The notes: generated by a model from the sequence alone, not told the origin. A stretch of DNA of 64,000 nucleotides from an uncultured virus (IMG/VR IMGVR_UViG_3300047673_000475) (IMGVR_UViG_3300047673_000475); one strand, 5' to 3'. Shown: positions 40,726-57,811, counted from the stretch's first letter. Program-made: numbers and translations.

Positions 40726-41113
40726 AACCCCTTACCTGATAGGTCGGGATGTCGATCACATTAAACTGATTGACACCACCGCCAAGTCAGGGGTCCTGGC
40801 GTTTGCACCGGATTGGGAGAATGTAAAGGCGTACAAGGACGGGCGCTTAAACGAGCAGAGCTACACGGAACTCTACGAAGACAAGATGGTGGAGTCGCGT
40901 GACATGCATCGAGCGGCGTGGGATCGCCTCTCCGTGTATCCGTACGCAGCGTATGGGTGCTACTGCCCGGCTGGGGTGTTCTGTCACCGATTACTATTCA
41001 TTCACCATGCAAAAGCTCACCTAGAGTCGATGGGATGGAGAGTGAAGTTAATGGGTGAAATAACCAAAGATCATTTTCCGAAACCGGAGCTCCCTGATGC
41101 CACGTCATCTTAA
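40487..41113 (+). CDS. DUF488-like protein overlapping the upstream gene
   Basis: GGAGGT SD plus GTG at 40487; LWTIQLGQHRL, IDTTAKSG..FAPDW, CYC..G.FCHRL. Confidence 0.7.
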   Translation: MDASAISSTDTPASPSPTPQFFLWTIQLGQHRLLRARSATSSAESTSTPTASSTLPSDSATSSTTSSTPSPATADPSGAETPYLIGRDVDHIKLIDTTAKSGVLAFAPDWENVKAYKDGRLNEQSYTELYEDKMVESRDMHRAAWDRLSVYPYAAYGCYCPAGVFCHRLLFIHHAKAHLESMGWRVKLMGEITKDHFPKPELPDATSS

Positions 41114-49939: not shown

Positions 49940-51705
49940 TGGACGTCTTGGGTAAATCAACCCTGATGATGCCGCTGGGGGCTACCCTTGGCGCATCCAT
50001 TGGGAATACCAGCGTCACGGGCACGGACGGGGGTGTCCCCGTCTATAACCCGGACAGCGGGTTTCGGATCTGGGCATTGTCCGAGGTCTATCGTGGCCAG
50101 GTGGGCACCAACATGTACGTGCCGAATGTGGGCGACTACGTGGTGGATAACTCACCGGGCTCCAATGCGTGGTATCGGGTCGCCGCTCTGGACCAGACTA
50201 CGCTCATTCCAACCCTCCTCTCAATCACCACCGCAGCGACGGGGGAATTCAGCGAGGACGATCTGCTCATGGGCGTCGGCCCTGGGACGCAGTCCGATAC
50301 CTATCGCTGCTACCTCGATCAGAGCGTGATGCCGTTCTCGATGGCGGTCGACGTGCGTCTGGTGGTGGGCGGTAGCCAGGCATCGTACGCGAAGATCTTC
50401 AAGGGCGCCATCCTCGGTGATGATGGTACGGTGATTTCGGCGTTTTACGATCAGTCGGGCAACCTGCTGGGCGAGAACGTGCCGCTCGAAGTCGTGCAAA
50501 CGTCGCAACAAGGCGTGGTCACCACCGCACTGAAGGTCATCAAGCAGTGCTACACCAAGGTCGCGCTGCTCGATGGCGAGATTGTCACCGTGGTGATCTA
50601 CGCGGCGGATGGCACGGTGCTCTCCAAGCGCCAGCTGCTGATTGAGAACACGGCGTTTATCCGCTCGACCGATGCGAGCGAGAAGTACATCACTGGTATC
50701 TCGATGACTTCGCCGTTTATGAGCTCGAGCGATCCGAACACGTTGGTCTACCCGATCAATGTGCCCAAGGATGGTCTGAACCTGATGGGACAGGTCCATT
50801 ACTCGGACGGGACTACGGGCTCGATGCCGGTCGACGGGACCAAGTTCCAGCTCTTCGGGCTGGACGCGTACGTGGCCACCATCGTCGGTCAGAAGTTCAA
50901 GCTGGTGCTCAAGTACAATCTGTCGCAAGACGAGCTGGTGTACGGCGCCACAGCCAATGTCGATGGGTCGGGCGGAGCCGCTTTCATCCAGGAAACGTAC
51001 AACGCTACCACCGAGAATGTCGACGGTGCGTACACGCTTAAGCTCTTCTGCGTGCCGCGCTTCATTGACTCGGTCAACGGCTGGTATCTGGATTGGTACC
51101 TCTTTAACCTCGATCGCAACCTTGCGCAACTGGTCACGCCGTATGTGACGTTCGCACCGAATAGCCCGGCCTTCTTGCCGCACGGCTACGGCGTGAATCA
51201 ACAGTTGCAGGTGCAGTTGAAGCTCTCGGATGTGAATCCGGCCTACAAGAACGTGCAGTTCACGCAGACCATCGGGCTCGTGCTCAATCGTGACGGTACG
51301 GATAAGACGGGCACCAACTGGACCATTGCGTACGATCCGGGTCAGACGCCTGCGTATGGCTTGAACACCCATGCGTCGACGACCTTCGTGAACCAGAACC
51401 TGATGCAGGTGTACATCAATCAGGGTCTCACGGACTTCGACACGTTCCTCGACCAGGTGTACTACCCGGCCAAGCCGCTCACCGATCCGAACGTCGAGAC
51501 GCAGGCACCGCAACCGAACATGTTCGCGTTGCTGCTGCCCAACCAGGCACCGGTGGAGTTCCCGATCAGTCAGTGGGCTTCTCAGCTGGCGATTGGTCAG
51601 GCCATTGCGGCAGGCAGCACGCTCGTGGTGAAGTTCTTCTTCCGCACGCCGGAGAACGACCTCGAGCTGGCACTCTGTCCGATGGCAGTCTGGCAAACCA
51701 ACTAA
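49939..51705 (+). CDS. Virion structural protein (phiKZ gp26-like)
   Basis: TAATG-coupled; YVPNVGDYV motif; synteny. Confidence 0.75.
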   Translation: MDVLGKSTLMMPLGATLGASIGNTSVTGTDGGVPVYNPDSGFRIWALSEVYRGQVGTNMYVPNVGDYVVDNSPGSNAWYRVAALDQTTLIPTLLSITTAATGEFSEDDLLMGVGPGTQSDTYRCYLDQSVMPFSMAVDVRLVVGGSQASYAKIFKGAILGDDGTVISAFYDQSGNLLGENVPLEVVQTSQQGVVTTALKVIKQCYTKVALLDGEIVTVVIYAADGTVLSKRQLLIENTAFIRSTDASEKYITGISMTSPFMSSSDPNTLVYPINVPKDGLNLMGQVHYSDGTTGSMPVDGTKFQLFGLDAYVATIVGQKFKLVLKYNLSQDELVYGATANVDGSGGAAFIQETYNATTENVDGAYTLKLFCVPRFIDSVNGWYLDWYLFNLDRNLAQLVTPYVTFAPNSPAFLPHGYGVNQQLQVQLKLSDVNPAYKNVQFTQTIGLVLNRDGTDKTGTNWTIAYDPGQTPAYGLNTHASTTFVNQNLMQVYINQGLTDFDTFLDQVYYPAKPLTDPNVETQAPQPNMFALLLPNQAPVEFPISQWASQLAIGQAIAAGSTLVVKFFFRTPENDLELALCPMAVWQTN

Positions 51706-51723
51706 CGCTTTGGCGTCCTCAGC

Positions 51724-51762
51724 GTCATAAGGCCCAGGGGGAAACCCCTGGGCTCTATGCTG
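51724..51762. terminator. Hairpin flanked by GTCATA/TATGCTG between convergent genes
   Basis: GCCCAGGGG-GAAA-CCCCTGGGC-TC-TATGCTG. Confidence 0.75.
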
Positions 51763-51778
51763 TCGTTCTACCAACGGC

Positions 51779-54046
51779 TTACCAACGAGCGCCTGAGGCT
51801 GTCGAATACACGCCGTAGTTAGCCGGTGCACCAAACATGTCCACATGCGTCATCGGTAACTCGCTCGTCACCAGCATCCCCGTATTGTGACCGAGGTACT
51901 GGTTCTGCTGGCTTTGCTGGTACAGGTTCGAGGTCCTCACCTTATTGCGCTTGGTTTCCCGAGCACTGCGGATGAGTTCGTCCACCGAATAGATCTCATC
52001 CTGTTCGAGGATGATCTTCTTATCCAGCATACGCAGCTCCTGCTCCAGACGCGCGGCCACAAAGTCATCGTGCTCACCGGTGAGTGCGTTGTAGATCTCC
52101 TCGATGCGACTGCGCACAGTCTGTTGCTCCATGCGCCGGAAGAAGTCCTCTTGCGACTCAGTCTGCTTGGTTTTGACTGCACACATAACCTGGCGGGGAT
52201 CGATGCCATAGTGTTGCAGGTTCTTGCCATGCATGAGGAACCAGTGACACAACAACCAGCCGATCACCAAGTCATCGTGTTCGCCATCTTCGTGGTCGAT
52301 GCGACCATTCTTGTACACGAGACCGAGGATCTGCCCGGCGAGCATCTTGTCATGCACCTTCATGCCGCTGCGCTGGGCCGCAGCTTGAAGCACCTGACCA
52401 TACAAGGCATTGCGACTGTTGGCCCCCGAACCGGAGGTGGCAAAGCCGAACGTGGTCTTGTAGCGCACGTAGATGTCAGTCGGACGACGACCGATTGGCA
52501 CCTTGATTTCCTTGAAGCGATCCGGATACTCGTCGTAATCCTGCACCACCTTGTTAAAGACGCGTTTAAACGGATCTTCGCCATAGTTGGGCAACATCAG
52601 GAGCAGGTAGTCCAGCAACATCGCCCCAGTGGAGCGCCGCTCGATGACTGCTGTGATGTTCGAATACCTGACAAGCGTATCGCACACCCACTTGGAGAAG
52701 GTAATCAGGTTGGTTTCGTTATACGAGCCCGCTGCGACCACCTCCAGGGTTTCCACATCCATCAAGACGAGGGAAATGTCATCGCCCCCGCCTGCTTCAG
52801 ACGTATCCATGCCAAGCACGAATTTGCCGGTCGCCATGCGCTCTTCAATCTCTTCCTGTGCAATGTACCAGCGCGTGATGTAGCCGTCCGGATCACTGAT
52901 GGAAGTGTAGAGCTCGTCCAGACGCGACGAAGCGATCATCTCAGCCGTGCTGGTGGAGAGCGGGGAGCTTTCCGTACCCGAGGTCCACAGGTTAAAGTAA
53001 TCTCGGTTCGCATCATCACCGGTCTGCAGCGATTCTTCAATCTTCTGCTTGAGCCACTCATCGCTCTTACCCAACTGACGGTGACTGAAGGTGCCATTGA
53101 TCCGGAACAGACCCGCGCGGCTATTACGACGGACCATGCGATCGAGTTCAGCCCAGTTCTGGCAGTCGAAGAACTTCTCAGTCCACGAAGCTGAGTCTTC
53201 CAGCAGCTTGTAGATGAAGCGACCATCGCGGTCGTCCTTCTTGCCTGCGGTCGTCGTCAGGATCGTCCCGTACGGCGCGCCCGCGGCCTTGGCCCGTTCC
53301 ACAGCGGCGCCGGTAGCAGCCAGAGCAGCAGGCAATGCAATCGCGATATTGGGCTGGAACGGCGGCTCGTCGATGTGGAAGATCGCGGTCGTGAGACCTC
53401 GACCCATGTTGTACGCACGCTTCGGGCTCGATTGCGGCACGTGCGTGTTGTACGAATTCTTCAAGGCCTTCACGGTGATTTCTTCACCGTTCTGCGCATC
53501 GTCCTTCGAGCGTTGGCTCAGGTACGGTGGCAGCTCGGACATGATTTCCTTGATCCGCTCGATATTCTTGCGGCGCAGGTTATCGTCCTTCGTCAACAGG
53601 TTGATGCTGGTACCCGTACAGACGACGTTCATCAGGTAGCTCATCAGCGTATCAGTCGAGAACGACTTGCCGGTCTGACGTGGCTGAATGAGCGTAAAGA
53701 AGATGTGGTTAAAGAAGGACCAGTAGAGCGCAATGTTCGCCCGGTTGGCTTCCAAGGGCACCGCATCGGAACCGGAGTTACCCGGAGCCCGTGCGATTTC
53801 CCGGAAGAAGTACCAGGGGTTGATCTTGCACTCGACAGCGATCATGTACATCTGCTCAGGAGTGAGGTCCTTGCTGAAGGGGTCCACCCCTTGCAGTTTC
53901 GGATTCACCAGCGCGAGCAGGAAGGCGTGGTTCTTGATACCCATCGAGCGATACACCGCTGCCAGACGAATCCAACTTTTGTTGGTGGTCTTGGTGTCGA
54001 TGATCGCGGTCGGATAACGATACCAGTCCTGTTCGAAGAGTATGAT
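51779..54046 (-). CDS. terL: Terminase large subunit (phiKZ gp25-like); proposed non-AUG (ATC) start at 54046
   Basis: QPRQTGKS Walker A, FHIDEP Walker B, LGMDTSE and HDDLV nuclease motifs; frame open upstream of GTG 53956 through ILFEQDWYRYPTAIIDTKTTNKSW. Confidence 0.93.
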   Translation of the reverse strand: MILFEQDWYRYPTAIIDTKTTNKSWIRLAAVYRSMGIKNHAFLLALVNPKLQGVDPFSKDLTPEQMYMIAVECKINPWYFFREIARAPGNSGSDAVPLEANRANIALYWSFFNHIFFTLIQPRQTGKSFSTDTLMSYLMNVVCTGTSINLLTKDDNLRRKNIERIKEIMSELPPYLSQRSKDDAQNGEEITVKALKNSYNTHVPQSSPKRAYNMGRGLTTAIFHIDEPPFQPNIAIALPAALAATGAAVERAKAAGAPYGTILTTTAGKKDDRDGRFIYKLLEDSASWTEKFFDCQNWAELDRMVRRNSRAGLFRINGTFSHRQLGKSDEWLKQKIEESLQTGDDANRDYFNLWTSGTESSPLSTSTAEMIASSRLDELYTSISDPDGYITRWYIAQEEIEERMATGKFVLGMDTSEAGGGDDISLVLMDVETLEVVAAGSYNETNLITFSKWVCDTLVRYSNITAVIERRSTGAMLLDYLLLMLPNYGEDPFKRVFNKVVQDYDEYPDRFKEIKVPIGRRPTDIYVRYKTTFGFATSGSGANSRNALYGQVLQAAAQRSGMKVHDKMLAGQILGLVYKNGRIDHEDGEHDDLVIGWLLCHWFLMHGKNLQHYGIDPRQVMCAVKTKQTESQEDFFRRMEQQTVRSRIEEIYNALTGEHDDFVAARLEQELRMLDKKIILEQDEIYSVDELIRSARETKRNKVRTSNLYQQSQQNQYLGHNTGMLVTSELPMTHVDMFGAPANYGVYSTASGARW

Positions 54047-54055
54047 AATGTCACC

Positions 54056-54874
54056 TCATTCGGTTAATGGAGAAAAGAGCCAACCCTTGTAGGGGGTAGC
54101 GGCTCCCTTTCGTGCCTTATGATTGCGATACCCGACGATGTCGAGCTTTAGCAATCGGCAAGCGTGTTTGACTGAACAAAAAAGTGTGCGTTCACCTGTT
54201 TCGATATTCTCTCCGACAATATCGCAGACCCTGCCTAGCGTGTACTCCTCGCTATCATCCGGAGCAAGGAATTCAGGCCATGGTTTTCCGTCATCGAACT
54301 TGTACACCCGGCCTAGGTGTTTGATTCGACCGGCTGCCACAGACCAGAGGTGGATGAACATGACCGACTGGGTCACACCGGCTTTTCGAGCACACTCGCT
54401 TACCGAGTAGTAGCTCTCCATTTCGCCAGTCTCTACGTCTTTGGACAAAACCTTGAGCTGGTTGCTAAACAACCCGTGCTCTCGGGCATGCTTCATGTTT
54501 TCTTCACCAGTGACCCACTCGAGGTTATCCCAAACGTTGTTCAGCTTGTCACCGTCGATATGGTTCACTTGCAATTCATCGAAGCTGATCTCTTTGTGTC
54601 GTTCAGGTTTATCCACGAACAGCAAAGCTACCAGCCGATGGACTAAGTAGTTTTTCCAAATCCCATCGTCACAGAGCGTGGTAATTACGTACCCTCTCCC
54701 GGCAATCCGCGTGAAGTGTTTCTCGCCTGTAATGAGATTGATGAGCTCGCCACGCTTGTTAATCACCACATGACTTTGACCAACTGGGACTTGGTAATAC
54801 CCTTTGTAGTAGGGATGCTCGCCCGTAAACGGGGGAACATAGCTGTCTACAACATTGTCTATTGTTTCGTTCAT
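54056..54874 (-). CDS. Free-standing HNH homing endonuclease with NUMOD1-like C-terminal DNA-binding repeats
   Basis: [45 protein letters not shown]; visibly AT-richer than neighbours. Confidence 0.92.
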
Positions 54875-54915
54875 TTACTTGCCCTGAGTCTTCTGTAAAT
54901 GTAATCATACTGATG

Positions 54916-54943
54916 CGGCATAGAGGGAGGCCGAAGCCTCCCC
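54916..54943 (-). terminator. Hairpin plus TATGCCG on the minus strand
   Basis: Minus strand reads GGGAGGC-TTCG-GCCTCCC-TC-TATGCCG. Confidence 0.75.
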
Positions 54944-54951
54944 CATACGCG

Positions 54952-55362
54952 CTAGATGAAGCTACTTTGCTTGAGCGCTCTTAATTTGTCCGTGATCAAA
55001 TCCACGTACGCATCAATGGCGTAGAGCTTTTGCACTTCGTCTTCTACATAACCGGGACACAGGGCAGGCAATGTAACCGCTAAGTCACATGCCCGACGAA
55101 TCAGTTCCGGTGCATCATTGGTCGTCGTTGAAAACAACTGGTAAGCCAGGTGTTTCTTCTTCGGCCATTGCCAGAGCGAGTAGCCCGTCTCGAACTGCAA
55201 GCGCTGACAGTAGATGGTGATGTCGTAACCCGAATGATGAATCACCCGAAGCGTATTACGGCGATTCGTCTGGATCACGATCTCTTGCTGGAACGACCTG
55301 TTACCCTTTACGTGCTCCAGCCACAGGAACCCTCGGGTAGCTAACCTCTTCAAAAGCGACAT
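54952..55362 (-). CDS. Hypothetical protein
   Basis: ORF fills the gap between neighbours; AGGT SD. Confidence 0.65.
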   Translation of the reverse strand: MSLLKRLATRGFLWLEHVKGNRSFQQEIVIQTNRRNTLRVIHHSGYDITIYCQRLQFETGYSLWQWPKKKHLAYQLFSTTTNDAPELIRRACDLAVTLPALCPGYVEDEVQKLYAIDAYVDLITDKLRALKQSSFI

Positions 55363-55389
55363 GGTAGAACCTGGTCGTGCGACCAAGCC

Positions 55390-56631
55390 TTATGCAGCGG
55401 CGCTCTGGGAGTAATACCGCATCGAATACGCGCGGGCGATCAAGTACAGCAGTATCCCGGTGCGCACAGCCGCAATCACACTGGAGTTCTTATTGTTAGT
55501 CGCGAGCTTCACGATCTTTTCTGCTTTCTCCCGCAGCGAGAACAGAGCAGGGTCCGTGGACCGCGAACTCATGTACACACCACGCAAGCGTGTGAGTAGG
55601 CTGGCCAAGTCCGTAGAATTCCTCACCAAGTTCCGATTCTCCGCGAGGTAGTCAAAACTGTGGATCAGGGTTTCGTTAAGCAGCTCTTCGATCATGCTCG
55701 CGCCGGACTGGCGGTAATTGTCCGACATCCATTCGAGCGATTCGCGGAAAAGACGGGGCGGCATCGTCTTCATCTGCTTCTCGATAACAGTGAGAAGCTC
55801 TTCGCGAATAAAGGAGTTCCGGTCGGTGATGATCGAGTTGATGTACCTGGTGTAAGCCAGGAGGTTTTTCGACTTGTCCTTCAAGATCTCGACCCCGTCG
55901 TGTTCGACTAGCGAACTCGTCGAGCTGATCTTGATACCCTGCCGATGCACTTGCAAGAAGACATCGTAAATGTTTTTCAACATGTCACGAATCCGGCCTT
56001 GCGTATCATTGAGCAAATAAATGACGGTGCTATCGGGGTCCATCAGTTCGATGGCTTTGCGGTGAAGACCGGTCGGGCTGATCACTTCTTCGGCGCGGGC
56101 ATTGAGCACTGCGGCCCAAGAGCCGTACTGTTTAATCGCATACTTAAACGTCAGGGCTGCATACGTGGCTTCTGCCGTCGCACGATCCGCCGGGTACTTA
56201 AAGTGCCGGTACAGACGGGATGTGAGGAACTTGTACTGCATCACCAGGACGACATCCAACATCGCCTGATGACGCTGAGCGTCGCTTAGCTTCTTGCTGT
56301 GGAGCAACGCATGCAAGAGCCAGGCACAGGAAAGATTGAGCGTGTCGGAGGACACCACCCAGTCACTGTTGACCGTGGGCAGCGCCACCAGCCGTGCTTC
56401 GAGTGTGCTTTCGTCCGCTTGGAGAATCTCGGTGAACCAGCGGTCTTTATCACTGTCAGTAAAGCGCACCACTTGCACACCGGTCAGGTTCCCGCCAAAG
56501 AACTCGATGTGGTCCTGGTTTTTATGGGCGAAACCGACTGTGTACAAATGGATGCGTTTGGCCAATTGCGCGTCCAGCGCGAGGTGGGCACACTCGCTCT
56601 CAAACACGCCCTTGATAGAAACGTCTACCAT
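55390..56631 (-). CDS. Conserved phiKZ-like protein
   Basis: 413 aa; KNQDHIEFFGGNLTGV, DTQGRIR, YMSSRS; GAGGA SD. Confidence 0.8.
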   Translation of the reverse strand: MVDVSIKGVFESECAHLALDAQLAKRIHLYTVGFAHKNQDHIEFFGGNLTGVQVVRFTDSDKDRWFTEILQADESTLEARLVALPTVNSDWVVSSDTLNLSCAWLLHALLHSKKLSDAQRHQAMLDVVLVMQYKFLTSRLYRHFKYPADRATAEATYAALTFKYAIKQYGSWAAVLNARAEEVISPTGLHRKAIELMDPDSTVIYLLNDTQGRIRDMLKNIYDVFLQVHRQGIKISSTSSLVEHDGVEILKDKSKNLLAYTRYINSIITDRNSFIREELLTVIEKQMKTMPPRLFRESLEWMSDNYRQSGASMIEELLNETLIHSFDYLAENRNLVRNSTDLASLLTRLRGVYMSSRSTDPALFSLREKAEKIVKLATNNKNSSVIAAVRTGILLYLIARAYSMRYYSQSAAA

Positions 56632-56677
56632 TTAGCATCCTCTCAGATAGGGCAACGATACACAGAATTAGGATCAA

Positions 56678-56706
56678 CGGCATAAAGGCGAGGCCGAAGC
56701 CCCGCC
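56678..56706 (-). terminator. Hairpin plus TATGCCG on the minus strand
   Basis: Minus strand reads GGCGGGGC-TTCG-GCCTCGCC-TT-TATGCCG. Confidence 0.75.
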
Positions 56707-56734
56707 GTTTACACCATCCGTTCCAGGGATGAGA

Positions 56735-57811
56735 TTACTTACGTGCGCGCACGCGTTGGCGAGGCGCCAACGTAACGAGACGAACACGGAAGCTTTCGAG
56801 GGCAGCGTCACCATTGGCCACGGGGACCGTCGGGTCTTCGCCGTTAGCCTGGTTCTGCGGGACTTCACCCTCCTTCTTGGGTGCGGGGACCTTGTCGTCA
56901 CCCGCGCCGATGGCAGCTTGCGCTTCAGGGCTCAAAGCACCCGGATCGTTCGGCAAGGCCGAGACCGGTTGCACGACCGGTTGACCCGTGTCGGTATTGC
57001 CTTCTTCCAGCGCAGGCGCCACCCCGCTGTCTTCACCAGCCGGAGCTTCGGCAGCGGCAGCGGCTTCTTCAGCGGCGATCTTCGCGATCTCGACCACACG
57101 CGAGGTGATCGACGGATCTTGCGGGCAGGGATTGGTTGCCGGGTCACCTGCGACGCCTTCACCACCTTGTTGGGCCGTCACATCACCGGCCGTACCCACA
57201 CCGTCCGCGCCGTCGTTGCCACCGTTACCGAGATCGGTTTCCGGATTCACCACGCCTTCGACGAATTCTTCGAACGAACGATAGAACTTGCCACCCAGCC
57301 GCTTGGTCAGGGCTTCCATCGCTTCGGACAGATATTCGACTTCTTCCTTGGGTGCGCCACCCAGACCGTTGACCGAGGGCAAAGTGCCGTCGACCACCAC
57401 CACGAATTCCTTCGGGCGGCTTTCGCTGTCTTCGTTCATCAGCGCATCGGCCACATCGACCACGTCAGCGTCGGTGATGTCAGCTTTCGCCACACCGTAC
57501 ACTTGCAGGTCAGCACCTTCGGCACCAGGGGCACCGATTTCGCCGTTGACTTCGCTCACCGGCTGGACCGACTGCTGTTGGTTGTTGCTGATGGATTCGA
57601 CGATCTTTTGCATGACCGTCACGTCTTGGGCTTGGCTTTCCGTGGCCACTACACCCTCACCTTGGCTCGGCTCTTTGGCGTAGGCCACATCCAGCGCCTT
57701 GGTGAAGATCTCGGACAACGGACCGCTCATCACGATGGTCGGCTCGTTAGGACGCGAGGTCATCTCGACCGTCTCGCCTTCCAGCGCCATTCGGAACATG
57801 CTCTTGCTCAT
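56735..57811 (-). CDS. Acidic head-associated protein with several AxE protease motifs
   Basis: AAGGA SD at MSKSMFRMALE; GPLSEIFTKALDVAYAK, VATESQ, PALEE, AALES. Confidence 0.75.
   Translation of the reverse strand: MSKSMFRMALEGETVEMTSRPNEPTIVMSGPLSEIFTKALDVAYAKEPSQGEGVVATESQAQDVTVMQKIVESISNNQQQSVQPVSEVNGEIGAPGAEGADLQVYGVAKADITDADVVDVADALMNEDSESRPKEFVVVVDGTLPSVNGLGGAPKEEVEYLSEAMEALTKRLGGKFYRSFEEFVEGVVNPETDLGNGGNDGADGVGTAGDVTAQQGGEGVAGDPATNPCPQDPSITSRVVEIAKIAAEEAAAAAEAPAGEDSGVAPALEEGNTDTGQPVVQPVSALPNDPGALSPEAQAAIGAGDDKVPAPKKEGEVPQNQANGEDPTVPVANGDAALESFRVRLVTLAPRQRVRARK

Follow-up and report, generated by a model that had tools for sequence, protein, structure and literature searches.

A probable AUC start codon behind a strong Shine-Dalgarno sequence in the large terminase gene of a phiKZ-like jumbo phage

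How does translation of an essential phage gene begin when its reading frame opens without a conventional start codon? The large terminase gene (TerL) of an uncultured virus (IMG/VR IMGVR_UViG_3300047673_000475) raises this question. The analyzed stretch of 64,000 nucleotides, here called the window, lies within a virus contig of 71.9 kb and comes from a phiKZ-like jumbo phage whose closest named relative is Burkholderia phage FLC9. TerL lies on the minus strand directly behind an HNH endonuclease gene, and its frame contains no ATG, GTG, or TTG from the HNH stop codon (54058-54056) to codon 31. We propose that TerL is probably translated by ordinary de novo initiation, led by a Shine-Dalgarno (SD) sequence, at the AUC codon at 54046, which would give a full-length protein of 755 amino acids (aa). 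Sequence comparison makes initiation at this AUC or at a neighboring in-frame AUH codon (AUU, AUC, or AUA; ATH in DNA) well supported.

An ATC at the initiator position of the terminase frame

On the minus strand, the gene junction reads GAA TGA GGT GAC ATT ATC ATA CTC TTC, exactly as a first-pass annotation had given it, and the further features which that annotation described here are likewise present. The HNH gene (54874-54056) and the TerL stop-to-stop frame (54055-51779) occupy one frame with a single TGA between them. The first in-frame GTG is at 53956 (codon 31, with the ATC as codon 1), and the first in-frame ATG is at 53944 (codon 35). An extended SD sequence, the 7-nt anti-SD match GAGGTGA at 54057-54051, overlaps the HNH stop codon. 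Its anti-SD duplex of -11.3 kcal/mol is the strongest among the 10 ATH alleles described below, the anti-SD motif being a general one and not derived from the host. The putative start codon, ATC at 54044-54046, stands 7 nt past GAGG (aligned spacing of 6) at the Met-equivalent position: in an alignment of ortholog starts, it pairs with the annotated ATG of FLC9 gp25 and with the ATG of close relatives.

Two simple explanations for this arrangement can be set aside. Sequencing error is excluded as the cause of the ATC. No other letter was seen at 54044-54046 in four of four sequencing runs, compared as contigs and not as raw reads; X1 and X2 may be the source of the contig, while X6 (depth, 12.5) and X7 (depth, 4.7) are not flagged as source. 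The ATC also occurs on three other IMG/VR contigs (L001 to L003). Moreover, the pairing of ATC and SD exceeds chance because just 6 of the 5,057 ATH triplets on both strands of the contig have an SD-consensus match of at least 7 nt at an aligned spacing of 4 to 7.

Coding constraint begins at the ATC; ahead of it, an upstream in-frame stop occurs at varying distance, with no conserved residues. Between the window (ATC) and the related locus L004 (ATT), codons 2 to 30 (53957-54043, minus strand), which precede the first GTG, differ by seven synonymous and no replacement changes (binomial p = 2e-5). The other five pairs among the four close ATH alleles give p values from 7e-6 to 0.03, and the proportion of synonymous change is well above that of nonsynonymous change in all six pairs. 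These codons are under purifying selection. They are also predicted to be folded, with a pLDDT of 95 to 96 for residues 1 to 30 in an AlphaFold model built from a 102-row alignment; an earlier fold from a 7-row alignment (pLDDT, 38) was set aside.

Gene callers assume otherwise, placing the start at the GTG of codon 31 (53954-53956, minus strand) or at the ATG at 53944, so that TerL would lack its first 30 to 34 residues. Both codons are present in nine of nine close alleles, and truncated calls of 721 or 722 aa are found in databases among members of the TerL cluster. However, neither codon is preceded by an SD, the GTG falls inside a predicted helix (residues 23 to 34) that such a start would cut, and the purifying selection on codons 2 to 30 is seen in the ATH alleles themselves. 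The N-terminal motif, scored as a simple pattern, is kept in 112 of 120 database homologs. We regard a start at codon 31 or 35 as very improbable. Among the same 120 homologs, four have an odd extension with Ile standing where the initiator Met would be (P0015, one of these, is locus L165/L166), and four begin at Met35. One cluster, P0006/P0135/P0136 (87% identical), includes both 755-aa calls from ATG and truncated 721-aa calls, a split that is probably the same start polymorphism.

The gene itself (51779-54046 on the minus strand, 755 aa if the start is the ATC at 54046) is identified as a large terminase by its match to PHROG 2 (terminase large subunit; E = 2.4e-56) and by its predicted fold, an AlphaFold model with a mean pLDDT of 86 whose best Foldseek match is T4 gp17 (E = 1.7e-21). 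It shares 89% identity with FLC9 gp25 and 42% identity over 93% with phiKZ gp25, and its full-length homology, spanning the ATPase and nuclease domains, places it in the phiKZ gp25 family.

Start codons and Shine-Dalgarno strength across the family

Near-cognate start positions recur among relatives of this gene. From 315 sequences, 313 had a TerL match and 282 were usable, 31 matches being dropped because of contig edges or unaligned N termini; these collapsed to 178 distinct start contexts. ATG stands at the Met position in 120 contexts, up to 3 codons upstream in 39, and 4 to 10 codons upstream in 4; a further 4 contexts have GTG and 1 has TTG. Thus, 168 of the 178 have a conventional start codon at or just ahead of the Met position. 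The remaining 10, defined as having no ATG at or within 10 codons before that position and no GTG or TTG at it, all have ATT, ATC, or ATA exactly there. Four belong to the FLC9-like group (ATC in the window; ATT in L004, L006, and L009), and six are distant, at 57 to 71% identity (ATA in L186; ATC in L165, L195, and L199; ATT in L235 and Xanthomonas phage RTH11). Some of the collected jumbo-phage TerL loci (L302 to L308) sit on 140- to 290-kb contigs filed in bacterial genome records (Caballeronia, Paraburkholderia, and others).

The ATH alleles are set apart by their ribosome-binding sites. All 10 have a strong SD at an aligned spacing of 4 to 7, and their median duplex energy is -8.65 kcal/mol, versus -5.7/-5.9 kcal/mol for ATG alleles (p = 4e-6; p = 5e-5 when the close clade is counted once). 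In 9 of 10 hand-picked pairs, not all of them strict sisters, the ATH allele has a stronger SD than a nearby ATG relative; for example, L195 (TAAGGAGATTATC-ATC) exceeds L202 (AAGAAGATTATC-ATG). The strong GAGGUGA SD of the window likely compensates for the weak AUC codon. The first-pass annotation had proposed that AUC initiation limits terminase levels. A lowered level would be plausible, although the weakness of the codon may be made up for by the stronger SD. Net output may or may not be lower than in AUG alleles, since these often carry weak SDs, at -2.4 to -6.4 kcal/mol in the close group.

A FastTree phylogeny covered 90 of the 178 contexts, namely the rows with 56% identity or more. It implies 10 changes of start state, at least 8 of them forced by well-supported branches, and these changes are no more clustered than shuffled labels. 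By this comparison, the AUH state is judged to have arisen or been exchanged many times. The ATH states lie on tree tips with ATG sisters, as short-lived mutations would, and one run, X6, contains two related phages together; both points would suit an allele that is broken or nearly silent in a dead-end or complemented phage. Yet both phages in X6 have ATH starts, and the complete genomes G001 (ATC) and G002 (ATT) have one TerL apiece. The ATT allele reaches a depth of 533 in run X12, which may be its source. Also, the SD is strengthened in every ATH allele, and the substitutes for ATG at the Met position are ATH, GTG, and TTG, never CTG, ACG, AAG, or AGG. A broken allele is thus most unlikely.

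Nor is this a property of the genome at large. Of 80 FLC9 genes tried, 63 have an ortholog in the contig, and TerL alone among them is without a usable ATG, GTG, or TTG, a comparison that rules out odd starts as a general trait of the genome. At 40823, a seeming GTA start was rejected as a mis-set FLC9 start because coding continues upstream: the annotation of FLC9 gp32 begins at an internal GTG, and coding similarity extends ahead of it. No tRNA reading AUC or a stop codon was found in the window. ARAGORN called 4, 1, 4, and 8 tRNAs in G001, G002, G003, and FLC9, respectively, and none of them is an Ile, Met, or suppressor tRNA (Rfam gives 10 tRNA matches in FLC9 versus these 8, with 2 not typed). 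No phage-encoded initiation factor 3 (IF3) was detected, with an IF3_C match in none of five records. As a separate observation, the tRNA cluster of G001 and G003 (L408 and L407) adjoins an HNH-like open reading frame (ORF) and includes low-scoring tRNA-Phe(AAA) and tRNA-His(ATG), for which FLC9 has GAA and GTG anticodons; these tRNAs may be decaying.

Several observations weigh against initiation at the ATC or against its generality. The choice among the three adjacent in-frame AUH codons, ATT (54049-54047), ATC, and ATA (54043-54041), at aligned spacings from GAGGU of 3, 6, and 9, is made by spacing and alignment alone. Four of the six distant ATH cases are known from one metagenomic contig each. 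Just 5 of the 10 ATH alleles (the window, L004, L006, L186, and L199) have no NTG codon between the upstream stop and codon 25. A GTG lies three codons upstream in L009 and in RTH11, where it overlaps the HNH stop as GTGA and is annotated as the start; L195 and L165 have TTG or GTG further upstream; and codon 3 is TTG in L235 and L009. These five alleles are therefore ambiguous, RTH11 and L009 the most so. Specificity for TerL is only suggestive, since ATG is present in all contexts of the tail-tube gene (0 of 48 without) and of a neighbor gene (0 of 16 without), with Fisher p values of 0.12 and 0.07, respectively; the tail-tube set began as 80 loci, of which 16 were dropped for unaligned N termini and the rest collapsed to 48. 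Finally, raw counts show HNH genes to be enriched among ATH alleles, with ATH in 3 of 7 HNH-bearing contexts versus 7 of 171 HNH-less ones (Fisher p = 0.004).

A second in-frame Ile codon directly before the inferred start (54047-54049 in the window) is found in 5 of 10 ATH alleles (the window, L009, L165, L186, and L195) versus 14 of 120 ATG alleles (p = 0.006), and such tandem weak starts may be additive.

The HNH gene and its cassette

The gene ahead of TerL (54056-54874, minus strand) encodes a free-standing, I-HmuI-like HNH endonuclease of 272 aa with an HNH domain and a NUMOD-like DNA-binding part (PF13392, E = 9e-10; PF22083, E = 1.3e-6). It shares 28% identity with PhiPA3 gp210 and 38% with an ORF before TerL in RTH11. 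In the RTH11 record (L021), an intact HNH ORF of 262 to 268 aa at 692-1498 is absent from the annotation, which gives an antisense ORF and a short ORF at this locus instead. Seven of the 178 contexts have an HNH gene of this family ahead of TerL. Three of these have ATH and four have ATG, the latter being L008, whose HNH is 85% identical, L121, L314, and L087.

The first-pass annotation had coupled AUC initiation to HNH termination, so that the endonuclease would be tied to an essential gene. In its strict form, this reading holds that the AUC is used only by ribosomes that re-initiate after ending at the HNH stop, making TerL synthesis dependent on the HNH gene. The HNH TGA does lie inside the SD, 9 nt ahead of the ATC, the HNH stop is within 10 nt of the TerL start in seven of seven HNH loci, and the enrichment given above points the same way. 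However, the HNH gene is absent from 7 of the 10 ATH alleles. L004, L006, and L009 combine ATT with a GGTG-type SD and have no ORF ending within 140 nt, and across the HNH-less ATH alleles the nearest upstream ORF ends 93 to 178 nt away in five, while in two no ORF of at least 100 aa lies within 200 nt. Conversely, four of the seven HNH alleles start with ATG. A test by independent pairs gives a median p of 1 for the link between HNH and ATH, with too few pairs to reach significance or to exclude the link. Because 7 of 10 ATH alleles lack the HNH gene and 4 of 7 HNH alleles use ATG, no HNH link is needed. Of the coupling idea, then, comparative evidence upholds the AUC start, while the dependence of TerL on the HNH gene is probably wrong, and obligatory re-initiation is an unlikely account.

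The shared frame, with one TGA between the two genes, also suggested to the first-pass annotation that UGA readthrough might yield an HNH-TerL fusion; the fusion would then be the functional terminase. Readthrough is impossible in the HNH-less ATT alleles. It is unlikely in the HNH loci because the frames differ in four of the seven and the stop in L008 is TAG, not TGA; the three in-frame loci use three different stops (TGA, TAG, and TAA). No suppressor tRNA was found among the tRNAs called in G001 to G003 and FLC9, and readthrough leaves the SD at initiation spacing unexplained. We give a fusion product very little credence.

In the window, the HNH gene belongs to an 859-nt cassette (54056-54914, minus strand) that, compared with L004, stands in place of the 111-nt intergenic leader of an HNH-less allele. 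The joints are seen in run X6, which contains forms with and without the cassette at similar depth. Between L006 (no HNH, ATT) and L008 (HNH, ATG), differences fall at 13 of the 30 opening nt of TerL, versus 5 of the next 2,170 TerL nt and 3 of the 420 nt ahead of the insertion; in this pair, therefore, the cassette includes the SD and the first 10 TerL codons. This pattern is as expected from co-conversion after a cut near the start, although which allele was the donor and where the cut fell would be conjectural. The short tract is seen in this one pair; the window and L004 diverge by about 10% over the full length of the gene and by about 1% upstream of it. Optional presence at a single site (7 of 178 contexts, with both forms in X6) and co-conversion of the flank (the 30-nt tract of L006/L008) are both found for this gene, which is likely a free-standing homing endonuclease aimed at the 5' region of TerL. 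Sequence comparison suggests that the HNH gene is likely a hitchhiker that swaps start regions and not the cause of the AUH start.

Upstream of the HNH-TerL pair, a TATG at 54906-54909 (minus strand) is a candidate late promoter: it matches the motif of phiKZ late promoters, G being +1, as defined in PMC4666361, and it also occurs in L008 and in HNH-less leaders. No sigma-70 promoter was found in 53800-55100. The same TATG belongs to the sequence TATGAT, whose ATG opens a reading (MITFTED) that resembles the terminase N terminus (MILFEED), a chance likeness in the window. Splicing, ribosome bypass, or frameshifting could in principle connect an upstream ATG of this kind with TerL, and in database protein P0133, the TATGAT ATG is open and in frame. 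However, the distance from this ATG to the Met position is 40, 40, 42, 43, 44, 44, or 52 nt, and the ATG is mostly out of frame or stopped, with L008 in another frame. No Rfam match at E of 1 or below was found in 51000-57000, and the TATG fits the late-promoter motif. Such a joining is scarcely credible, and MITFTED (ATG at 54908) was rejected as a relic or spliced TerL start, its frame not being kept in L008 or in HNH-less leaders. A search for a group I intron gave no Rfam match and no conserved upstream exon frame, although divergent phage introns can escape Rfam.

The HNH-less leaders have a structure of their own. In seven of seven (L004:2920-2985, L011, L026, L009, L006, L012, and L017), a long stem encloses a smaller hairpin and the TATG, with z scores of -1.7 to -3.0 in windows chosen by eye and two of seven consensus pairs changed on both sides. 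This fold, common to ATG and ATT alleles and lost where the HNH cassette sits, is possibly a structured leader or promoter element. The minus-strand genes of the window comprise a 144-aa ORF as well as the HNH gene and the terminase frame, and a G+C-rich hairpin after the 144-aa gene (54919-54942) is repeated in inverted form, over 24 nt, in another part of the source contig.

Known near-cognate starts and a proposed mechanism

Weak starts behind strong SDs are already known; what is new here is a recurring, mobile switch in an essential gene. As proposed for TerL, infC (AUU/AUC) and pcnB (AUU) use a near-cognate Ile codon as a start; such starts are discriminated by IF3, with a reported 1 to 2% of AUG output in Escherichia coli reporters, as quoted in PMC5499595. 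The infC codon is a conserved autoregulatory start, whereas the AUH state of TerL is polymorphic within one phage genus. Staphylococcus aureus cvfC1 (AUU) and ccpN (AUA) likewise combine an AUH codon with an extended SD (PMC13009471), but they are conserved bacterial starts demonstrated by Ribo-RET, whereas in TerL, an essential gene of a phage, the switch recurs and the AUH start is predicted. An AUH start has also been described for Enterococcus faecalis ebpA (PMC4447247).

Among phages, Streptococcus phage TP-J34 terS has a predicted AUU start (AAGGAGGT-6 nt-ATT) in re-sequenced DNA (PMC3952083). Like TerL, terS encodes a terminase subunit, and its predicted AUU start stands behind a near-perfect SD. 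However, terS specifies the small subunit, the phage is temperate and unrelated, and this one case has no comparative or mobile-element dimension. Streptomyces phage Hau3 also decodes its terminase in a nonstandard way, proposed to sense the translation state of the host (PMC10732093), by internal bypassing at UUA of inserts and not at the start codon. PhiPA3 gp210, an HNH homing endonuclease (PMC11620839), shares with the window HNH its phiKZ-like phage setting and its place beside a conserved essential gene. It is, however, carried by a group I intron that interrupts an RNA polymerase gene, while the window HNH is free-standing upstream of TerL, with no intron found by Rfam and a predicted activity. 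No report of a non-AUG start in a phiKZ-like TerL was found in open texts, excluding supplements; subscription papers may bear on this point.

In the mechanism that we propose, a late transcript would begin at the TATG site, a 30S subunit would bind at GAGGUGA, and fMet-tRNA would decode the AUC in the P site, so that full-length TerL of 755 aa would be made at a modest, IF3-sensitive rate. Sensitivity to IF3 is expected because IF3 represses near-cognate starts (PMC5499595 and PMC2268962). HNH termination overlapping the SD may add some re-initiation in the window but would not be required. The start region probably behaves as a small module open to exchange, which takes the form either of AUG behind a weaker SD or of AUH behind a strong one. 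Homing of the HNH cassette would overwrite the start codon of the recipient, in either direction, because the SD and, in the L006/L008 case, the first 10 codons of TerL belong to the cassette.

A more far-reaching and quite speculative extension, which we think doubtful, is that jumbo phages repeatedly trade AUG for AUH with a strong SD and so bring their packaging motor under the control of host IF3, terminase output then following the state of host initiation late in infection. The HNH endonuclease would then shuffle these modules between coinfecting phages, and loss of the ATG would perhaps be an escape from cleavage.

The consequences reach beyond this locus. Gene callers truncate or overextend these terminases, as the 721-aa and spurious extended calls illustrate, which affects a standard phage marker gene and its cloning. 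The family also offers natural, near-isogenic allele pairs (ATG, ATT, and ATC, with and without the HNH gene) of one essential gene. These pairs make it testable whether near-cognate starts lower output or instead hold output level and add IF3 sensitivity. Also, a putative homing cassette here carries the ribosome-binding site and first codons of its host gene. If the IF3-gated, HNH-shuffled extension were true, a selfish nuclease would be rewriting the translation of an essential gene.

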